64,000 bases of DNA, taken from NCBI GenBank assembly GCA_963706595.1, contig OY970166.1:160001-224000 (forward strand), given 5' to 3'. Below the pieces are notes generated by a model. The model made no database searches. It saw nothing but the letters and a program-made list of their open reading frames with translations, and was not told the DNA's origin. This stretch comes from an uncultured cyanobacterium. GTDB lineage: Bacteria; Cyanobacteriota; Cyanobacteriia; Cyanobacteriales; Nostocaceae. The position numbers and the translations under genes are program-made. Shown piece after piece: positions 10,728 to 24,221 of this stretch; the first letter of the stretch is position 1, and each line of letters begins with the position of its first letter.

Positions 10728-11528
10728 ATGGAAACATCTAATCAACACTCTCTTAGCACAATTCGGAAATCCCGCCGTAGAGATAGTCTGAAAAATACTG
10801 CTTTAGGTTTAGTCTCTACCAGCAGCTTTCCCGCCATAGTGGGGACAGCAGATATGATGCTGAAATCGGCTGGTGTTCACCTAGTGGGGTATGAAAAAAT
10901 TGGTAGTGGCCAGTGTACGGCTATTGTCAGGGGTGGAATTGCTGATGTCCGTCTGGCGGTGGAAGCTGGTGTGCAAACTGCTGAACAGTTTGGTCAATTG
11001 GTTTCTAGTTTGGTAATTCCTCGGCCTTATCCTAACCTGGAGATAGTATTACCTATCAATAGCCGCCTGAGTAAATTGATGGAGGAAGGTAATCAAAGCA
11101 GTTTAAGTAACTTAGCCATTGGTTTAGTAGAAACGCGCGGTTTTCCGGCGATGGTGGGTGCTTGTGATGCGATGCTCAAAGCGGCTGATGTTCATTTAGC
11201 AGCTTATGAGAAAATTGGTGCGGGTTTGTGTACAGCCATTATTCGTGGCACTGTGGCTAATGTCGCCGTAGCAGTGGAAGCGGGAATGTTTGAGGCAGAA
11301 CGCATTGGGGAATTGAATGCAGTGATGGTGATTCCTCGTCCACTGGATGAAATGGAGAACACTTTGCCTTTAGCCAGTTGCTGGATTGAACACCGCGAAC
11401 CATTGAATATGCCTGTGAATGTCGAGGAACAGGTGGCCCAAATAGAAGTGCTACAATTGCCTGATTTATCCCAGATACCAGCAAAATTTGCGGAAGAAGT
11501 GACCGAAGAAATATGGAATGATGAATGA
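10728..11528 (+). CDS. ccmO: Tandem-BMC shell protein CcmO
   Basis: Two BMC domains; follows ccmN. Confidence 0.92.
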   Translation: METSNQHSLSTIRKSRRRDSLKNTALGLVSTSSFPAIVGTADMMLKSAGVHLVGYEKIGSGQCTAIVRGGIADVRLAVEAGVQTAEQFGQLVSSLVIPRPYPNLEIVLPINSRLSKLMEEGNQSSLSNLAIGLVETRGFPAMVGACDAMLKAADVHLAAYEKIGAGLCTAIIRGTVANVAVAVEAGMFEAERIGELNAVMVIPRPLDEMENTLPLASCWIEHREPLNMPVNVEEQVAQIEVLQLPDLSQIPAKFAEEVTEEIWNDE

Positions 11529-11686
11529 TGAATTACTGAGGATAAATGAGCCATTGTCGGCAATTCTCATTTAACTTTCGGCATTCAACATTCATCTTTT
11601 GTTGGAAGGCATCTTACGCTTTGTTTGTTGTTTTGATAATAACTTGTGATTACCATAAGTAAAACAAGTTTATTTTAATAACCTTC

Positions 11687-11702
11687 ATAGAGTTTTATCT
11701 AT
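11687..11702. promoter_or_regulatory. Candidate LysR (CbbR-subfamily) operator ATAG-N8-CTAT
   Basis: ATAGagttttatCTAT about 100 bp upstream of the LysR gene. Confidence 0.45.
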
Positions 11703-11802
11703 ACTTTAATTCAGAACTTCGTATGGGTGATTCGGTATCATTGGCAAGTGTTCAGTGATACTAGATTTATAGATATAAATCGCTATTAGAGGAGAATCAC
11801 TC

Positions 11803-12756
11803 TTGAACCAGGCGACGCTACACCAGTTGAAGGTGTTCGAGGCGGCAGCAAGGCACAGTAGCTTTACTCGTGCGGCTGAGGAATTATTTCTGACTCAACC
11901 CACCGTGTCCATGCAAATTAAACAACTCACAAAATCAGTAGGGTTGCCATTATTTGAGCAGGTGGGAAAACGTCTCTTTTTGACAGAAGCCGGAAGAGAA
12001 TTATTTGCAACTTGTCGGCAGATTTTTGAAACCATAGCCCAGTTTGAGATGACTGTGGCGGATTTAAAAGGCTTAAAACAAGGACAATTACGCTTGGCGG
12101 TGATTACAACAGCAAAGTATTTTGTCCCCAGGTTATTAGGTCCATTTTGTCAACTGTATCCAGGAATTGAGATTTCCTTACAAGTAACGAACCACGAACG
12201 CATCTTGGAACGGATGGTGAATAATATGGATGACTTATACATTATGAGTCAAGTCCCAGAAAGTCTAGATGTCAGCTATGAACCATTTTTAGATAACCCT
12301 TTAGTAATGTTTGCACCGGTTAATCATCCTTTAGCAAAAGAGAAAAATATACCGATAGAAAGATTGACAAATGAACCTTTTATTATGCGAGAACCGGGTT
12401 CAGGAACTCGCCGGGCTGTGCAGCAACTGTTTGATCAACATGGCGTGAAGGTAAAAGTTAAGCTGGAGTTGGGGAGTAACGAAGCGATTAAACAAGCGAT
12501 CGCAGGTGGTTTAGGAATTTCGGTTTTATCGCGTCATACTTTAATGCCAGACTCTTCTGAGTTCAGCATTTTGGATGTAGAACACTTTCCCATCAAGCGA
12601 ACTTGGTTTATCGGGTATCCCTCTGGTAAACAGTTGTCTATCGTCGCTCGTACTTATTATGAGTATCTGCTGGAAGCAGCGAAAAAGTTTGTTGAGGAAA
12701 CTGGTTTTTCTGCTTACAGTCAAAGTGAGGATGTTCCCACTAGCCTTGGCGATTAA
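11803..12756 (+). CDS. cmpR: LysR/CbbR-family regulator of carbon-uptake genes (CmpR)
   Basis: LysR HTH (SFTRAAEELFLTQPTVSMQIKQL); TTG start with GAGGAG RBS; position after ccmO as in Anabaena. Confidence 0.8.
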   Translation: MNQATLHQLKVFEAAARHSSFTRAAEELFLTQPTVSMQIKQLTKSVGLPLFEQVGKRLFLTEAGRELFATCRQIFETIAQFEMTVADLKGLKQGQLRLAVITTAKYFVPRLLGPFCQLYPGIEISLQVTNHERILERMVNNMDDLYIMSQVPESLDVSYEPFLDNPLVMFAPVNHPLAKEKNIPIERLTNEPFIMREPGSGTRRAVQQLFDQHGVKVKVKLELGSNEAIKQAIAGGLGISVLSRHTLMPDSSEFSILDVEHFPIKRTWFIGYPSGKQLSIVARTYYEYLLEAAKKFVEETGFSAYSQSEDVPTSLGD

Positions 12757-14572: not shown

Positions 14573-14612
14573 GTCAAGAAATGAGTTGATATTAAGTTTG
14601 GAGAAACAATTT

Positions 14613-14843
14613 ATGTTAGGTCTAGACAATATTACATTTGACCCTGGCATTATGGGAGGACAAGCTTGCATTCGCGGGATGCGAATCCCGGTGTCTTTAG
14701 TGGTTAATTTAATAGCTAATGGGAAAATTGTAGAGGAAATTTTAGAAGAATATCCTGATTTAGAAGCAGAAGATATTCGTCAATCTTTATTGTATGCAGC
14801 GTGGTTGACTCAAGAACGGGTTTATCCCTTCAAAATTGCTTAA
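14613..14843 (+). CDS. DUF433 family putative antitoxin
   Basis: ITFDPGIMGGQACIRGMRIPV...EYPDLEAEDIRQSLLYAA signature; ATG 14613 after GGAG. Confidence 0.88.
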   Translation: MLGLDNITFDPGIMGGQACIRGMRIPVSLVVNLIANGKIVEEILEEYPDLEAEDIRQSLLYAAWLTQERVYPFKIA

Positions 14844-14851
14844 TAAGTAAA

Positions 14852-14932
14852 ATGAGATTTTTGGCAGAATATAATTTAACTCTTATGCAGTCAGGCGATC
14901 GCCTTTCTTTGTACATTTTTATAAAAGTATAA
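14852..14932 (+). pseudogene. Probable truncated PIN-like (DUF5615-type) toxin
   Basis: ORF MRFLAEYNLT... begins 8 bp after the DUF433 stop, resembles the MRFLAD start of DUF433 partner toxins, and stops after 26 codons. Confidence 0.45.
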
Positions 14933-15060
14933 TTTTATACTTTTGTCAATACCCTGATGCCAAAAAACTCAAATTAAGTTTGAGTAAAATTCAGCTTGAA
15001 AAAAGAGCATTATTTTCTATAATTTGGAAATATAATGATAGCGATCGCCACCATCAAAAA

Positions 15061-15093
15061 AGATCCCCGACTTCTTGAAGAAGTCGGGGATCT
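15061..15093. repeat. 33-bp palindromic dispersed repeat, copy 1
   Basis: AGATCCCCGACTTCTT-G-AAGAAGTCGGGGATCT, perfect 16-bp arms. Confidence 0.9.
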
Positions 15094-15211
15094 GAGCCTC
15101 TCGCTAGTGGCAAATCAGAGAGAATAGCTATATTTTTATGAGACAATAATATTAAAGTGATAACTTATAGCGCCTTTGCGTAAGGGTTAAAACATTTTAC
15201 AACTCTAGGCG

Positions 15212-15439
15212 TTATTCTGGCGATTGTGTAATATTCTCATCTTGGAATCCTGTAATTTTGGCATATAAACTGGCAACTGTTTCTTCAGCAAAGAGTTTTT
15301 CTTTAAGTTGCAAATAATCGCCTTCACTTAATTTACAGGTAGCCCAAAATTTCATTACCTTCGATGGTTCTAAGTGAGTGAGTAAAACCTGCATTACTTC
15401 TTGGATATTTTGTTGTTCGTTGATAACTTTAATTGTCAT
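15212..15439 (-). CDS. Small protein, putative antitoxin partner of the PIN protein
   Basis: 75 aa; start overlaps the end of the PIN gene. Confidence 0.65.
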   Translation of the reverse strand: MTIKVINEQQNIQEVMQVLLTHLEPSKVMKFWATCKLSEGDYLQLKEKLFAEETVASLYAKITGFQDENITQSPE

Positions 15440-15869
15440 TTCCTACCTCAAGAATAAAATTGTTTGGGTTGATTACTATGAGTGATAAATTATGACATCT
15501 GTTGATTAACCTCCTATCACAAGTGATAAGATAATCACTTTCAGAAGTCTCTGCACACGCTACATGAAGTGCATCAATAGGTTTAATTCCTTGTTGTTCT
15601 AGTTGTTCTGCTCTGTTTCTGATTTTTTCATCGACTAATACTCTGAATTTAGCTATTTCTAAGTATCTCGCCATTGATTGCTGATTGACACTAAAAGGGT
15701 TACGGCTATTTTCATATTCTAGAACTGAAGAGCTAACTAATTCTATTAATTTCGCTTCTACTGTTTGTAAAATTAAGATAACTGCTTGTGTTTCTAGAAA
15801 GATTTTTGGCTGTGTTTGGTCGTCAAATGGACGATTATAAATACTGGTATCTAGATAAACCCTGGTCAT
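15429..15869 (-). CDS. PIN-domain (VapC-like) ribonuclease
   Basis: VYLDTS, VLEYE, DALHVACA and LITCDRRL supply the acidic PIN residues. Confidence 0.88.
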   Translation of the reverse strand: MTRVYLDTSIYNRPFDDQTQPKIFLETQAVILILQTVEAKLIELVSSSVLEYENSRNPFSVNQQSMARYLEIAKFRVLVDEKIRNRAEQLEQQGIKPIDALHVACAETSESDYLITCDRRLINRCHNLSLIVINPNNFILEVGNDN

Positions 15870-15970
15870 AAATATAGCTTTTTATAAAACTTTATCTTGA
15901 AAAAATCGCTTGCGTATGTATATTTTAAATCGTGCGATCTCTTGTACAATACCATCAATAATTTTTATAC

Positions 15971-17587
15971 TCAATTTTGTTGCCGGCAAGCTTCCCAATT
16001 TTTACGAACAGTAATAGTATTGGGATGATTGTCTCCCAGCAGGCGTTTACACAGTTCTAAAGCTTGGAGAAACAGGGGTTCGGCTTGGTCGTAACGTCCT
16101 TGGGAAAAGTAGAGATATGCCAAGTTGTTGAGGCTGGTGGCGACATCGGGATGATTCTCACCTAGCAGGCGTTTTCTCAGTTCTAAAGCTTGGAGTAACA
16201 GTGATTCGGCTTGGTCGTACCGTCCTTGGTCAGAGTAGAGATTTGCCAAGTTGTTGAGGCTGGTGGCGACATCGGGATGATTGTCTCCCAGTAGGCGTTT
16301 TCTTAGTTCTAAAGCTTGGAGTAACAGGGGTTCGGCTTGGTCGTACCGTCCTTGGGATTCGTACAATGATGCCAAGTTGTTGAGGCTTTGAGCGACATCG
16401 GGATGATTATCTCCCAGCAGGCGTTGACAGAGTTCTAAAGCTTGAAGATACAGGGGTTCGGCTTGGTCGTACAGTCCTTGGGAATCGTACAGTGATGCCA
16501 AGTTGTGGAGGCTGGAGGCGACATCAGGATGATTGTCTCCCAGCAGGCGTTTTCTCAGTTCTAAAGCTTGGAGAAACAGGGGTTCGGCTTGGTCGTACAG
16601 TCCTTGGGAATAGTAGAGGAATGCCAAGTTGTTGAGGCTTTGAGCAACATGGGGATGATCTTCTCCCAGCAGGCGTTTTCTGAGTTCTAAAGCCTGGAGA
16701 AACAGGGGTTCGGCTTGGTCGTACCGTCCTTGGGAATCGTAGAGTAATGCCAAGTTGTTGAGGCTGCTGGGTAAGTCTTTCTCTAAACCTAACTGTTTTT
16801 GCAGTTCCACGGCCTTGCTTAGATACTCAATTGCTAATTCTTGTTCTTTTTGGTAATCCTGACACTCACCCCGTTGCAGCCTTTTTATATAAATATTGCC
16901 TAAGCTAAAGTACAAAGTTGCTAAACTTGTATCTTTTTTACTTTGCTGTTCTGCATCTTGAATAAACTTTTTTAAATCTTCTATAGGTAATAAATAAGGA
17001 TTATCATCATCAAAATCAGGAATTTCATGAGAATTAAAAGCAAAACGAATTGGCTCTAATTCTTTACCAGAAATACTATTTTTCCTTCTTGAGACAAATC
17101 GAAAAACACCATTGCGCCAACTCCAAAAATCTGGTGCTTTATTTATCAAATTAATTAATATTTGGTTAGTCACCCACAAAACAATCGCAAAAGGAAATTC
17201 TCTTAATGCTTCTCTAGTCCACTGTAAGTAACCGAAAAAGATATCTTGTTCTGAACGCTCCTTCCCCAGTGGAAGAAAATAAAGCTGTTCTGCACCAGTC
17301 ACAGTAATTACTGCTGGTTTATGTTGACGCAAATACTCTTCATTTTTTACCAATTGAGAAATAGCAGCCGTCAAACTCGGTTCACCCCTCGCCAATGTCA
17401 CCCTATAAGTAGGAAACAGAGGTTGCAATTCCGCTTCATATTGAGCAATGATTTCATCACGAAAACTAGCATCATCACAAACAGCAATTAACAAATTTAA
17501 TCGATGTGCTTTAGCTTCGATGGAAACAACTAATTCATCATAAACATCTCTATGGTCGTCATTTACTAATAAATCTTCATTCAGCAT
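15971..17587 (-). CDS. TPR protein: N-terminal APDFWSWR-motif domain + six 42-aa TPR repeats
   Basis: SLNNLAxLYxSQGRYDQAEPLxLQALEL repeats; start overlaps the ATPase end. Confidence 0.9.
   Translation of the reverse strand: MLNEDLLVNDDHRDVYDELVVSIEAKAHRLNLLIAVCDDASFRDEIIAQYEAELQPLFPTYRVTLARGEPSLTAAISQLVKNEEYLRQHKPAVITVTGAEQLYFLPLGKERSEQDIFFGYLQWTREALREFPFAIVLWVTNQILINLINKAPDFWSWRNGVFRFVSRRKNSISGKELEPIRFAFNSHEIPDFDDDNPYLLPIEDLKKFIQDAEQQSKKDTSLATLYFSLGNIYIKRLQRGECQDYQKEQELAIEYLSKAVELQKQLGLEKDLPSSLNNLALLYDSQGRYDQAEPLFLQALELRKRLLGEDHPHVAQSLNNLAFLYYSQGLYDQAEPLFLQALELRKRLLGDNHPDVASSLHNLASLYDSQGLYDQAEPLYLQALELCQRLLGDNHPDVAQSLNNLASLYESQGRYDQAEPLLLQALELRKRLLGDNHPDVATSLNNLANLYSDQGRYDQAESLLLQALELRKRLLGENHPDVATSLNNLAYLYFSQGRYDQAEPLFLQALELCKRLLGDNHPNTITVRKNWEACRQQN
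16016..16771 (-). repeat. Six intragenic 126-bp tandem repeats
   Basis: Anchor caagttgt(t/g)gaggct recurs at 16121, 16247, 16373, 16499, 16625 and 16751. Confidence 0.95.
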
Positions 17588-18869
17588 TAATTAACCTCCT
17601 ACGCCTCAAATTTTCTACAAGAATGGGGTGAACATCATACCAAGTTTCATCATTACGATATTCTAAAATATATAGCCCATGCAGTAATTCCAAAAATTCT
17701 TGCTGCTTTACGTCATCAGGCTCGAAATTATTATAAGTAGTTTTCAATATCTCAAAATCATCCCTTCCTAAACGGATAGAAAGGTCATTACGAATTTGCT
17801 TAATTGCTTGTTCTATAATTTGGTCATCAATTACAATTTTTTCTCCTGGCTTTTGCCTGATGAGTCGCAAACAAATACGACAACATACATTAGCCAGACG
17901 AATCAACTCCCTAAGAACTCCACCACTATAAACAACAATCTTCTCTGCGGCTGACCTGTCTATTAATTCATTAGCAATTCGTTTTTGTAACATTCCACAT
18001 AAAATATCTGCCGCTTCCCTTCGAGGCTCGGCATCAGGTAAGCGATTATTCCCCTTTCCAAAAATTTTGATCACAGGCATTACCAAAGTTTGGTAGTTGG
18101 TTTCTGCGTCAATAAGTGGCCAGAGAAAAGTGTCACACATGACCGCAATAGGGATAGTGTAGATAATCCGAAAATTAGGTTGAAACAGAGCTTTAATATT
18201 ATCTCGATAAATATCGTTAACTCTTACCAAATCTAGTTTATCTAAATCATCAATGATAACTATGCTCTCTTTTTGAGTATGAAGTTTAATCAGTGCAGCA
18301 ATTTCATTAATCCGAGCCACTAAATCGGATATTTTGCGTTCAAATTCCTGTGTTATTTCCTCCCTAACTTTTGCATTAGCTTTTAATTGAGCTTTCAGGA
18401 AAGTGAGCAAATTAAAACCTACCTCAAGTCCGCCCTCTACCTCTTCCTCTATAGTCCTAGTGCGATGTGCAAACCACCCATAAAGTTGATCTTTAGTAGT
18501 TTGAGGAATCTTGACTTGGCGTGCTTCTGCCTCATACATTAAATTAAGAGCAATAGCAAATAAAATATTGACATGATTTACAGCCGACATTTCAATAGTG
18601 TCAGCAATAGAGAATAAAACTACAAAATATTTGTCCTCAACTTGTCTACTAAACTCAGCTAATAGAGACGACTTTCCACAGCCCCGATGTCCAGTAAATA
18701 CAAACTTGCCATCACCATTAGGACTGTCTTCAACTAATTGACGTAAATCTGCTATTAAATCATCACCATAATCTACTCGAAATTGCTCCATTTCTCTCTC
18801 ATTCATCAATGGAAATAATTCGAGATTACTGTAAGCTTCCTGAAAAGATTTTAATAATTCGTTAGACAT
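17577..18869 (-). CDS. P-loop (AAA+/STAND/KAP-like) ATPase
   Basis: Walker A GHRGCGKS, Walker B IVIIDDLD, SGGVLRELIRL, C-terminal YDVHP; ATG 18869 is the likely start. Confidence 0.85.
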   Translation of the reverse strand: MSNELLKSFQEAYSNLELFPLMNEREMEQFRVDYGDDLIADLRQLVEDSPNGDGKFVFTGHRGCGKSSLLAEFSRQVEDKYFVVLFSIADTIEMSAVNHVNILFAIALNLMYEAEARQVKIPQTTKDQLYGWFAHRTRTIEEEVEGGLEVGFNLLTFLKAQLKANAKVREEITQEFERKISDLVARINEIAALIKLHTQKESIVIIDDLDKLDLVRVNDIYRDNIKALFQPNFRIIYTIPIAVMCDTFLWPLIDAETNYQTLVMPVIKIFGKGNNRLPDAEPRREAADILCGMLQKRIANELIDRSAAEKIVVYSGGVLRELIRLANVCCRICLRLIRQKPGEKIVIDDQIIEQAIKQIRNDLSIRLGRDDFEILKTTYNNFEPDDVKQQEFLELLHGLYILEYRNDETWYDVHPILVENLRRRRLINAE

Positions 18870-18998
18870 GGCGTATAACACAATAACATTTTTACTACTT
18901 ATTTATATTATGAGCTATCCAGCCCCAACTCAAAAAACTTTCCTCCATCTCTCTGCGCCTCTACGTGAAAAAAATACAGCACCCGCCAATTTTGATAA

Positions 18999-19031
18999 AG
19001 ATCCCCGACTTCTTCAAGAAGTCGGGGATTT
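18999..19031. repeat. 33-bp palindromic dispersed repeat, copy 2
   Basis: AGATCCCCGACTTCTT-C-AAGAAGTCGGGGATTT, two differences from copy 1. Confidence 0.9.
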
Positions 19032-19050
19032 GAGACTCCCGGTGTTGGCA

Positions 19051-23157: not shown

Positions 23158-23261
23158 CCTGTAACTGCTTTCACAACAGAAAAATATCTCAAATGTCAAA
23201 ATTGGTACGAAAGCCTCGTACAATTGATATCACTTCATTTTTAAACTCAGGAGCTAATGCC

Positions 23262-23570
23262 ATGCCAATGGCGGTTGGCGTAATTGAAACCTTGGGCTTT
23301 CCTGCTGTACTAGCAGCAGCCGATGCAATGGTTAAATCTGCCGCAGTCACAATTGTGTATTATGGTCAAGCTGAAAGCGCTCGAATGTTAGTCGCTGTTC
23401 GGGGACGCGTTTCGGAAGTTAACAGGGCGGTAGAAGCAGGAATATTCGCCGGAGAACAAACGTTTGGTGGTCAAGTAATTACCCACTACATTGTTCCTAA
23501 CCCTCCAGAAAACGTTGAGACCATTTTACCCATCCACTTCACAGAAGCATCTGAACCGTTCCGGATGTAA
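23262..23570 (+). CDS. ccmK3: Carboxysome shell protein CcmK3
   Basis: Divergent BMC (YYGQAESAR, HYIVPNPPEN); AGGAG RBS. Confidence 0.85.
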   Translation: MPMAVGVIETLGFPAVLAAADAMVKSAAVTIVYYGQAESARMLVAVRGRVSEVNRAVEAGIFAGEQTFGGQVITHYIVPNPPENVETILPIHFTEASEPFRM

Positions 23571-23870
23571 TCGGCAAATTCGTGATCTGATCTCTTGCAC
23601 CATGGTCAAGAACTCTAGGGTGAACATTACCAAAAGCAGAAAAATCAAGGTTTGAGCGCACGGTAAACAGTAACCACCCGACAAAAATTGTGATCAAATC
23701 AGTGATGTAAGATGTCAGCGCCGAAGAAGCGCGATTACAAGCCCGCAACCCATGAAAAACACATTGAGCAAATTTTTACCCTGTCAGGGTTTTAAAATGT
23801 GTTTTGTGAAAATCATCAAACTACCCCACGTTGCTTCCGACAATACATTTATTCATACAGGAGATTACTA

Positions 23871-24221
23871 ATGTCATTACAGGCCGTTGGCGCACTTGAA
23901 ACGAAGGGTTTTCCTGCTGTACTAGCAGCAGCTGATGCGATGGTGAAAGCTGGTCGCATCACTCTCGTGGGTTATATCAGAGTGGGTAGCGCTCGTTTTA
24001 CAATCAATATTCGCGGGGATGTTTCTGAAGTCAAAACAGCTATGGCCGCTGGTATTGAAGCCGCAGAAAATGTTCATGGCGGTACACTGGAATCTTGGGT
24101 GATTATTGCCCGTCCCCACGAAAACGTGGAAGCGGTTCTGCCCATCGGCTATACAGATGCAGTCCAACAGTATCGCGATTCTGTTGAAAACCCCATTGTG
24201 CGCTCATCTAATAGGTTATAA
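23871..24221 (+). CDS. ccmK4: Carboxysome shell protein CcmK4
   Basis: BMC domain ([22 protein letters not shown]); AGGAG RBS; follows ccmK3. Confidence 0.85.

Follow-up and report, generated by a model that had tools for sequence, protein, structure and literature searches.

An uncultured cyanobacterium of the family Nostocaceae (assembly GCA_963706595.1, contig OY970166.1) carries four co-oriented minus-strand genes between positions 15061 and 19031 of the window, the stretch of 64,000 nucleotides (nt) analysed here (positions 160,001 to 224,000 of the contig). In the direction of transcription, they encode an ATPase, a tetratricopeptide repeat (TPR) protein with a separate N-terminal domain (N-domain), a PIN-domain protein and a protein of 75 residues (Table 1). 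An earlier note, made from the letters of this DNA alone, had proposed that all four genes form one NLR-like defence module. We find instead, with moderate confidence, that the region consists of two independent two-gene cassettes and that the ATPase-TPR cassette is a predicted split NLR-like, ATP-driven switch. The pair of an ATPase and a protein with an apparently dead AAA+ domain and TPRs is a real, widespread and uncharacterised two-component system. The open-access literature that we searched contains no description of the cyanobacterial pair.

Table 1. Genes, domains and repeats of the region (positions in the window; aa, amino acids; TA, toxin-antitoxin; ORF, open reading frame).
Feature	Position	Strand	Remarks
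ATPase gene	17577..18881	minus	434 aa from GTG; ORF list
TPR-protein gene (putative dead AAA+/TPR)	15971..17587	minus	538 aa; overlaps the ATPase stop by 11 nt
N-terminal domain of the TPR protein, putative degenerate AAA+ base domain	17078..17587	minus	residues 1-170; without Walker A; ends in invariant DFWSWR; predicted ATPase docking surface
Six near-identical 42-aa TPR_10/TPR_12 units	16010..16765	minus	residues 275-526; 126-nt DNA repeats; few hypervariable positions
PIN-domain gene	15429..15869	minus	146 aa; PF01850, E 5.2e-9; likely toxin of an autonomous TA-like pair
75-aa ORF, partner of PIN	15212..15439	minus	overlaps the PIN gene by 11 nt; no family match
Dispersed 67-nt element, copy 1	15046..15112	unstranded	31-nt perfect palindrome; on the minus strand a terminator-like hairpin with T-run just past the 75-aa gene
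Dispersed 67-nt element, copy 2	18984..19050	unstranded	81% identity to copy 1 over 67 nt; upstream of the ATPase gene

The ORF list bears out the shared orientation and both 11-nt overlaps described in the earlier note, between the ATPase and TPR genes (17577-17587) and between the PIN and 75-aa genes (15429-15439). A gap of 101 nt separates the TPR gene from the PIN gene. The AT-richness that the note ascribed to the four genes is real for most of the block, with a GC content of 0.33-0.38 (15000-16000 and 17000-19000) compared to 0.42-0.47 on either side; the TPR repeats (0.43-0.49) are not AT-rich. The true start of the ATPase is probably the ATG at 18869 rather than the listed GTG, because the alignment of orthologues begins at residue 5. 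Among the PADLOC models, the four proteins have weak or generic matches only (VakA at 5e-5 over 65 residues, a generic TPR model and PDC-M11A at 0.0019). None has an NCBIfam match above threshold; the 'Sll1717 family' model reaches 28.5 bits against a cut-off of 75, and the open-access literature searched contains nothing on Sll1717.

Judging from its structural model, the ATPase is an AAA+ protein of the Orc/Cdc6-STAND-KAP type with a lid and a C-terminal winged helix. Its Pfam matches are AAA_16 (34.1 bits, cut-off 32.6) and KAP_NTPase (PF07693, 25.2 bits, cut-off 20, E 1.2e-5, residues 59-225), which places it in the KAP family by that model, and its Atlas clusters are cyanobacterial, with KAP_NTPase on 36-95% of members. 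In its 2004 description, the KAP family reportedly has transmembrane helices set inside the NTPase domain; the insert between Walker A and Walker B (approximately residues 103-202) is helical in the ATPase model. The Walker motifs, which the earlier note took to be intact, are indeed invariant in 19 aligned sequences (Walker A GHRGCGKS, 64-71; Walker B VIIDDLDK, 208-215). Further invariant motifs of the alignment are CCRIC in the lid helix and LLHGL...WYDVHPI in the winged helix. In the AlphaFold2 (AF2) model (pLDDT 74), a helical insert interrupts the nucleotide-binding domain, and a lid and a C-terminal winged helix complete the chain. The top fold matches in VIA are Cdc6 (Z 16.1) and Orc1/Cdc6 (Z 15.9), along with the archaeal PF01637 ATPases PAB2304 (Z 15.3, 288 residues aligned) and SSO1545 (Z 12.8), the latter two aligned over a span of residues 18-427. 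Plant NLR resistosomes (Z 12.6-12.9), CED-4 (Z 11.1) and MalT (Z 11.1) are also found, as are TnsC, Dark, RdrA and BrxC. The tripartite STAND module of nucleotide-binding, helical and winged-helix domains is thus present in the model, with Orc1/Cdc6 scores equal to or exceeding those of NLRs. On the other hand, STAND proteins carry their sensor on the same chain, whereas this chain stops after the winged helix and the TPRs are on the product of the next gene. The ATPase has no nSTAND match in Pfam, and a profile search of the complete set of PDB chains yielded no usable match for it (best E 0.0013, 48 residues). The NCBIfam model of Avs4 (NF041815) stays far below its cut-off (16.1 bits against 1500), and PADLOC has no Avs match.

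The first ~200 residues of the TPR protein have no match in Pfam. The AF2 model (pLDDT 78.5, pTM 0.73) shows a five-stranded alpha/beta domain closed by APDFWSWR (residues 151-158), and both sequence and model agree with the earlier description of an N-terminal alpha/beta domain that ends in this motif and has no P-loop. All 50 top rows in VIA are AAA+ or STAND proteins (Z 9.0-11.2, ~126-177 residues aligned), among them TnsC (Z 11.2), NSF-D2 (10.9), Orc1/Cdc6 (10.9), EfAvs5 (9.8) and NRC2 (9.4). Foldseek returns human ORC3 at the top, followed by CbbX, NSF and NLRP9 (E ~5e-4), and Nostoc Rubisco activase stands beside CbbX among the fold matches. No PDB chain matches the N-domain profile at E <= 10. 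A Walker A motif is not possible in this domain, since strand 1 (LLIAVCD) meets helix 1 after two residues, without GxxxxGK[ST]. The fold matches and the missing Walker A support the assignment of the N-domain as a degenerate, inactive AAA+ base domain, as the earlier note had suspected in calling it a possible inactive NTPase. In the 538-aa TPR protein, Pfam finds no HEPN, GT4 or winged-helix domain.

The same note suggested that the N-domain may pair with the ATPase, and this is what the complex model predicts. With residues 1-172 of the TPR protein, the ATPase gives an ipSAE of 0.84 (three runs), versus 0.00 for the best of three controls; the partner pLDDT is at least 83 and the runs share at least 75% of their contacts. 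The ipSAE mark applied is passed by 116 of 157 solved complexes and by 2 of 215 mismatched pairs, figures that are a rough guide here because our own alignments were used. On the ATPase, the modelled contacts involve residues 13-23, 65-66, 215-218, 244-246, 324, 331-343, 366-370 and 398-403, of which 13-23 are in the N-terminal helix, 65-66 in the P-loop, 215-218 just after Walker B and 331-343 in the CCRIC helix. On the N-domain, they involve residues 14-29, 123-126 and 144-161, including the PDFWSWR segment. The predicted geometry is that of an AAA+ inter-subunit interface, with R158 at the place of an arginine finger. The dead AAA+ domain would accordingly pack its N-terminal helix and PDFWSWR on the P-loop, Walker B, sensor region and CCRIC lid helix of the ATPase, and the result would be an AAA+-type hetero-oligomer built from two types of subunit, of which only one is active.

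The rest of the TPR protein is a repeat array. Strong Pfam matches to TPR_12 and TPR_10 begin at about residue 237, TPR_MalT also matches the repeats, and degenerate TPRs at ~222-274 precede the six canonical 42-aa units. The underlying 126-nt repeats are 77-87% identical. Lengths of homologues cluster at 500, 542, 584-587 and 626 aa, i.e. in steps of 42 aa, and positions 7, 10 and 29 of the unit have the highest entropy (444 units from 113 homologues). The array deserves the name of variable TPR that the earlier note gave it: both the number of units and a few positions differ among homologues. Identity to eight close orthologues is 81-88% in the N-domain and 58-81% in the TPR array. Within the array, it is 12-55% at seven positions that had been chosen as variable and 67-87% elsewhere, a contrast that is partly circular because the positions were picked within the same family. 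Near-identical units with few hypervariable sites and a changing unit number are also known from the repeats of fungal NLRs.

The ATPase and the TPR protein occur together in relatives. Among 401 sampled genomes of the phylum, the N-domain (residues 1-200) has matches in 107 and the ATPase profile in 110, and the two are distributed alike over families (41/45 versus 44/45 genomes in family f1, 25/25 versus 25/25 in f3, and 0/29 versus 0/29 in f25). In the window's own family, 44 of 45 sampled genomes have the pair. At each of the 29 fetched loci (L006-L034), the gene immediately upstream of that for the N-domain protein encodes the ATPase. The same order is found wherever the N-domain occurs among the fetched Oscillatoriales/Microcystaceae loci (19 of 19), and a comparison by eye of the coordinate lists of N-domain and ATPase matches adds at least 17 distant adjacent pairs. 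The named homologues all come from Nostocales and related filamentous cyanobacteria. The same genome has a paralogous pair at ~4.844-4.847 Mb (61-66% identity) with the ATPase upstream, a 4-nt overlap and no PIN pair. As the pair recurs in more than 100 genomes, it is beyond chance. It is a conserved and translationally coupled unit, on separate polypeptides as the earlier note had it.

The genes around the pair vary between lineages (21 loci). In 84 neighbouring ORFs, PADLOC matched only Ser/Thr kinases (PD-T4-6), two Uma2 proteins (PDC-S03) and generic methyltransferase, ABC and TPR models. One of the kinases, a 586-aa zinc-ribbon Ser/Thr kinase with a multi-pass membrane C-terminus, is encoded just upstream of the paralogous pair (L004 10372-12132, ~4.848-4.850 Mb) and matches PD-T4-6 almost end to end (E 6e-88). 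Its orthologue (45-47% identity) adjoins the pair in three genomes of another family (L047, L049, L050), and a different kinase is within 6 kb of the pair at L040-L042. The kinase beside the pair could reflect conserved synteny or a functional link.

The short-form pair, i.e. the one with TPRs only, looks vertically inherited and later rearranged, judging from sequence divergence. With the closest orthologues (genome G035), identity is 86% for the ATPase and 86% for the N-domain, and housekeeping genes of the same two genomes have 71-92% (ndhJ 86%, ndhK 92%, sulfite reductase 80%). Since the pair diverges like its housekeeping neighbours, it is not defence-island cargo. The genes that ancestrally flanked the pair, ndhJK and that for sulfite reductase, are now 200 kb apart in the window's genome and distant from the pair.

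The PIN and 75-aa genes have a different distribution. The PIN protein matches PF01850 with 37.2 bits (cut-off 23.6), and its homologues, many of which are broken by internal stops, are present in 81 of the 301 genomes sampled from the class. The 75-aa protein itself has no Pfam, NCBIfam or PADLOC match and only unnamed clusters in the Atlas. At 26 of 29 other cyanobacterial PIN loci, a homologue of it is encoded immediately downstream of PIN, usually with an overlap; none of these 29 loci holds the ATPase or the N-domain. Conversely, neither protein was found by tblastn (E <= 1e-2) at any of 21 other ATPase-TPR loci, comprising ~12 kb around 20 relatives and the in-genome paralogue. Because of this linkage elsewhere and this absence from the ATPase-TPR loci, we regard the PIN pair as autonomous. 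It is likely a TA-like selfish pair with the toxin gene first, which adjoins the ATPase-TPR pair only here. It resembles VapBC-type TA systems in its PIN domain, small overlapping partner, patchy spread and frequent pseudogenes, and differs from them in that the partner is downstream of PIN and matches no antitoxin family.

These data bear directly on the four-gene module, in which the PIN nuclease and its 75-aa partner would be under the control of the ATPase and the TPR sensor. Co-orientation and the 101-nt gap are compatible with one operon: no terminator-like site lies between the TPR and PIN genes and the only strong one follows the 75-aa gene, and in a few relatives TA-type genes are found near the 3' end of the pair. 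Yet PIN and 75-aa homologues are absent from all 21 other ATPase-TPR loci, and the ATPase and N-domain from all 29 PIN loci. Genomes G035, G041 and G044 have close ATPase-TPR orthologues and no PIN match at E <= 1e-5, whereas G059, with the closest PIN (84%), has only a distant long form of the N-domain, and the many broken PIN copies are typical of selfish TA genes. The module is thus largely refuted by co-occurrence and we give it hardly any credence; the roles of effector or stabilising TA system that the earlier note assigned to the PIN pair fall with it. For annotation, the PIN pair should not be taken as the effector of the system.

The second cassette is not the only TA-type sequence here. 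A DUF433 gene (85 aa, PF04255, E 3e-24) followed by a short ORF lies at 14586-14932 of the window. This ORF starts like what we take to be the N-terminus of DUF5615/Mut7-C-type PIN-like toxins, and the two together look like a decayed second TA pair. The intergenic stretch around the PIN pair may therefore be a TA landing spot.

The N-domain and the ATPase also belong to a wider family. A related ATPase (27% identity; hhalign probability 99.5, E 2.5e-22, full length) is encoded directly upstream of proteins of 1669-2046 aa, e.g. at L085, L086, L087 and L089, which start with a distant copy of the N-domain and continue with a small number of TPRs, an nSTAND1 NTPase and WD40 propellers. The ATPases beside these long forms have sub-threshold matches to nSTAND_NTPase5 (19.8-23.1 bits, cut-off 34). 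The window's genome has one such locus (L089, ~3.589-3.596 Mb), where the gene for a 433-aa ATPase precedes that for an N-domain/nSTAND1/WD40 protein of 1760 aa, with RadC and a Tn5-type transposase as neighbours; the N-terminus of the long protein matches the N-domain profile with an hhalign probability of 96.2 (E 2.7e-9). A third class comprises N-domain-TPR proteins of ~740 aa beside thiG, without an ATPase (L005, L088). In the window's genome, it is represented by a 738-aa protein with the motif PQFWRWR and TPRs next to thiG/thiO (L005 4073-6289, ~4.099-4.101 Mb), and L088, from another family, has the same thiG arrangement. As the arrangement recurs in that other family, these are orphan, vertically kept members of the N-domain family.

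Against 1.84 billion representatives, the N-domain profile finds 1212 proteins at E <= 1e-3, 184 of them at E <= 1e-30. A non-TPR domain was present in 10 of the 43 proteins scanned, which is not a frequency because the 43 were picked from the 150 best representatives for their long non-TPR stretches: NB-ARC in two, and CHAT, an MMR_HSR1 GTPase, a WecG glycosyltransferase, GUN4, AAA_16, CyanoTRADDas_TM, sigma-70 and a LexA DNA-binding domain in one each. For the CHAT form, we fetched 77 genome loci, 19 with the N-domain and 58 encoding TPR-CHAT proteins without it. The former are the 19 loci mentioned above, each with the ATPase directly upstream. The ATPase is missing in 57 of the latter 58 and the remaining one has a distant ATPase; intact operons of the ATPase followed by an N-domain-TPR-CHAT protein are found at L090 and L105. 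At L105 (7648-10858, Oscillatoriaceae), two further genes in the same orientation (527 and 513 aa) come after the CHAT operon, and the 527-aa one overlaps the CHAT gene.

In line with the NLR-like reading of the earlier note, relatives of the pair carry NLR-type domains (NB-ARC and nSTAND1-WD40) and a CHAT protease. The family looks like a split NLR-type system, because its ATPase and dead AAA+ domain are joined to CHAT, NB-ARC, nSTAND1-WD40, GTPase, glycosyltransferase or GUN4 domains. Judged from these fused domains, a role in sensing invaders would be the most likely one. A bolder proposal, which we offer tentatively, sees the core as the constant part of two-component, NLR-like immune receptors that would form a large, unnamed family in filamentous cyanobacteria. 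A small Orc1/Cdc6-like ATPase would be recruited in trans by a P-loop-less AAA+ domain joined to hypervariable TPRs, CHAT or nSTAND1-WD40. The TPR-only form would be a free-standing sensor or decoy and ligand-triggered co-assembly the output, e.g. abortive growth arrest.

Several points weigh against such an immune switch, besides the partial circularity of the repeat contrast and the selected sample of tails. There is no effector domain at the locus, where the pair has TPRs only and neither protein carries an effector or adaptor domain in Pfam, PADLOC or NCBIfam, and PADLOC has no real match for the pair. The complex score is a measure of model confidence, and AAA+ pairs resemble many solved complexes, which may inflate the pass. 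The arginine of DFWSWR is not among the confidently placed contacts and is not kept in the long nSTAND1-WD40 form. TA-type genes stand at the 3' flank in 2 of 21 loci (VapB at L036 and a different, opposite-strand PIN at L043), and a recurrent loose link of the pair with such genes is conceivable; we read this flank, which at L037 holds two small ORFs without family, as a variable slot rather than a functional link. Finally, the neighbours of the short-form pair are mostly of a housekeeping kind (ndhJKC, sulfite reductase, rbcL, ndk, TerC, serS, acetate kinase and PEP synthase), and its apparent vertical inheritance fits a cellular function as well as immunity.

Such a function could be that of a housekeeping chaperone or assembly factor, in which an AAA+ remodeller and a TPR adaptor would serve thylakoid, NDH-1 or carbon-fixation complexes. 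Photosynthetic cells have TPR assembly factors as well as AAA+ proteins of the Rubisco activase/CbbX type. In keeping with this, the ndhJKC genes are adjacent or nearby at L035, L036, L043, L044 and L038, and rbcL is within ~2.5 kb at L049 and L050. CbbX and Nostoc Rubisco activase are among the N-domain folds, divergence matches that of the neighbours, nearly all genomes of the window's family have the pair, and its copy here is without an effector domain. Carboxysome-shell-type genes also lie near the locus, namely those for a CcmO-like double-BMC protein and two CcmK-like proteins, along with a LysR regulator (10728-12756 and 23193-24221, identified by eye). Together with rbcL and ndhJKC by the pair elsewhere, these carboxysome-type genes are the only hint in this direction. 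On the other side, changes in repeat number and hypervariable TPR positions are unusual for an assembly factor. Genomes have up to four or more copies, the spread beyond a few families is patchy, and the same core is joined to CHAT, NB-ARC, nSTAND1-WD40 and CyanoTRADDas_TM. The neighbours vary by lineage and therefore point to no single client pathway. Overall, we consider a housekeeping role rather unlikely.

Still less probable, in our estimate, is a transcription regulator of the MalT/AfsR kind, whose ATPase would bind DNA through the winged helix and whose TPR partner would sense a metabolite or protein, and thereby control gene expression. The best fold matches of the ATPase are DNA-bound Orc1/Cdc6 structures, MalT itself is matched, TPR_MalT recognises the repeats and some relatives have sigma-70 or LexA DNA-binding domains. 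However, the winged helix is standard in STAND and Orc/Cdc6 modules and alone is no proof of DNA binding, Pfam finds no dedicated helix-turn-helix output domain such as LuxR or SARP, and no conserved target operon lies beside the pair.

Under the favoured reading of a split NLR-like switch, the TPR array would likely bind a protein or peptide ligand. The bound ligand would control both the ATPase cycle and oligomerisation, or the control would run the other way. As the window's copy has no effector domain, its output may be the oligomer itself or an unlinked partner, and the PIN pair would likely act as an ordinary TA-type selfish module. If this is true, one adaptor domain has been reused on very different sensors and effectors, and hundreds of genes annotated only as 'tetratricopeptide repeat protein' would find an explanation. 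The question of how a dead AAA+ subunit gates a live one would be directly testable with two small soluble proteins.

The two 67-nt elements at the ends of the region might be taken for the borders of a mobile insert. We reject them as evidence of mobility: the palindrome has 39 copies in the 5.57-Mb genome, about one neighbouring pair less than 4 kb apart is expected by chance (our own estimate), and another copy lies right behind the paralogous TPR gene in the same genome. The element may be a dispersed terminator-like repeat.

Among known systems, single-chain STAND and NLR proteins (Avs, MalT/AfsR, NB-ARC-TPR proteins and fungal NLRs) share with the pair the succession of a P-loop nucleotide-binding domain, a helical domain and a winged helix, then a TPR array, and plant NLRs, Dark, CED-4, Avs5 and MalT are among its fold matches. 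In the cyanobacterial pair, by contrast, the nucleotide-binding oligomerisation domain and the repeats are on two polypeptides, joined by a putative dead AAA+ adaptor, and there is no effector. Orc1/Cdc6 proteins, ORC hetero-oligomers and PF01637 ATPases are the best fold matches of the whole ATPase (Z 15-16), and ORC mixes active and inactive AAA+ subunits. They differ in that there is no match at the sequence level to a PDB chain and no sign of a role in replication, and in that the TPR partner is unlike ORC subunits.

The ternary iSTAND and iSTAND2 systems (Kaur et al. 2020, PMC7159879; 2021) are built on a MoxR-vWA couple. They likewise have a dead STAND-like module as the constant part of a predicted conflict system of multicellular bacteria, but none of the 21 loci here has a MoxR or vWA gene. 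The more general pattern described in PMC7159879, in which conflict systems of multicellular bacteria combine a constant core with swappable tails, some from cellular pathways, is seen in the ATPase/N-domain family as well. EACC1 (Kaur 2020) is a single-transmembrane domain paired with a caspase and was ruled out. The passages found in a 2026 Nature survey of defence STANDs (PMC13581612) mention no split or two-gene form, and the open-access literature searched contains nothing on nSTAND4, nSTAND5 or nSTAND6.

By architecture as published, the closest description in print is the two-gene nSTAND2 operon (Kaur, Iyer, Burroughs and Aravind 2021, eLife, PMC8195603). It consists of a gene for an active STAND with a winged helix-turn-helix (wHTH), followed by one for an inactive nSTAND2 with wHTH, TPRs and HEPN or GT4, for which the authors predict a hetero-multimer. 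The supplementary rows seen are from Proteobacteria and one Calditrichaeota, with no cyanobacterium among them. No model named nSTAND2 is among the matches of our Pfam scans. The cyanobacterial pair differs in that its dead module has ~170 residues and no winged helix of its own, in that neither HEPN nor GT4 is found at the locus, and in the tails of its relatives (CHAT, NB-ARC, nSTAND1-WD40, GUN4 and WecG) as well as in taxa. What both have in common, on the published outline of nSTAND2, are two adjacent co-directional genes of STAND/AAA+ type, the first active and with a winged helix, the second with eroded motifs, TPRs and variable tails. If our reading is right, the pair would be a second, cyanobacteria-wide NLR-like machine with a live and a dead ATPase on separate polypeptides, after the proteobacterial nSTAND2 operons.

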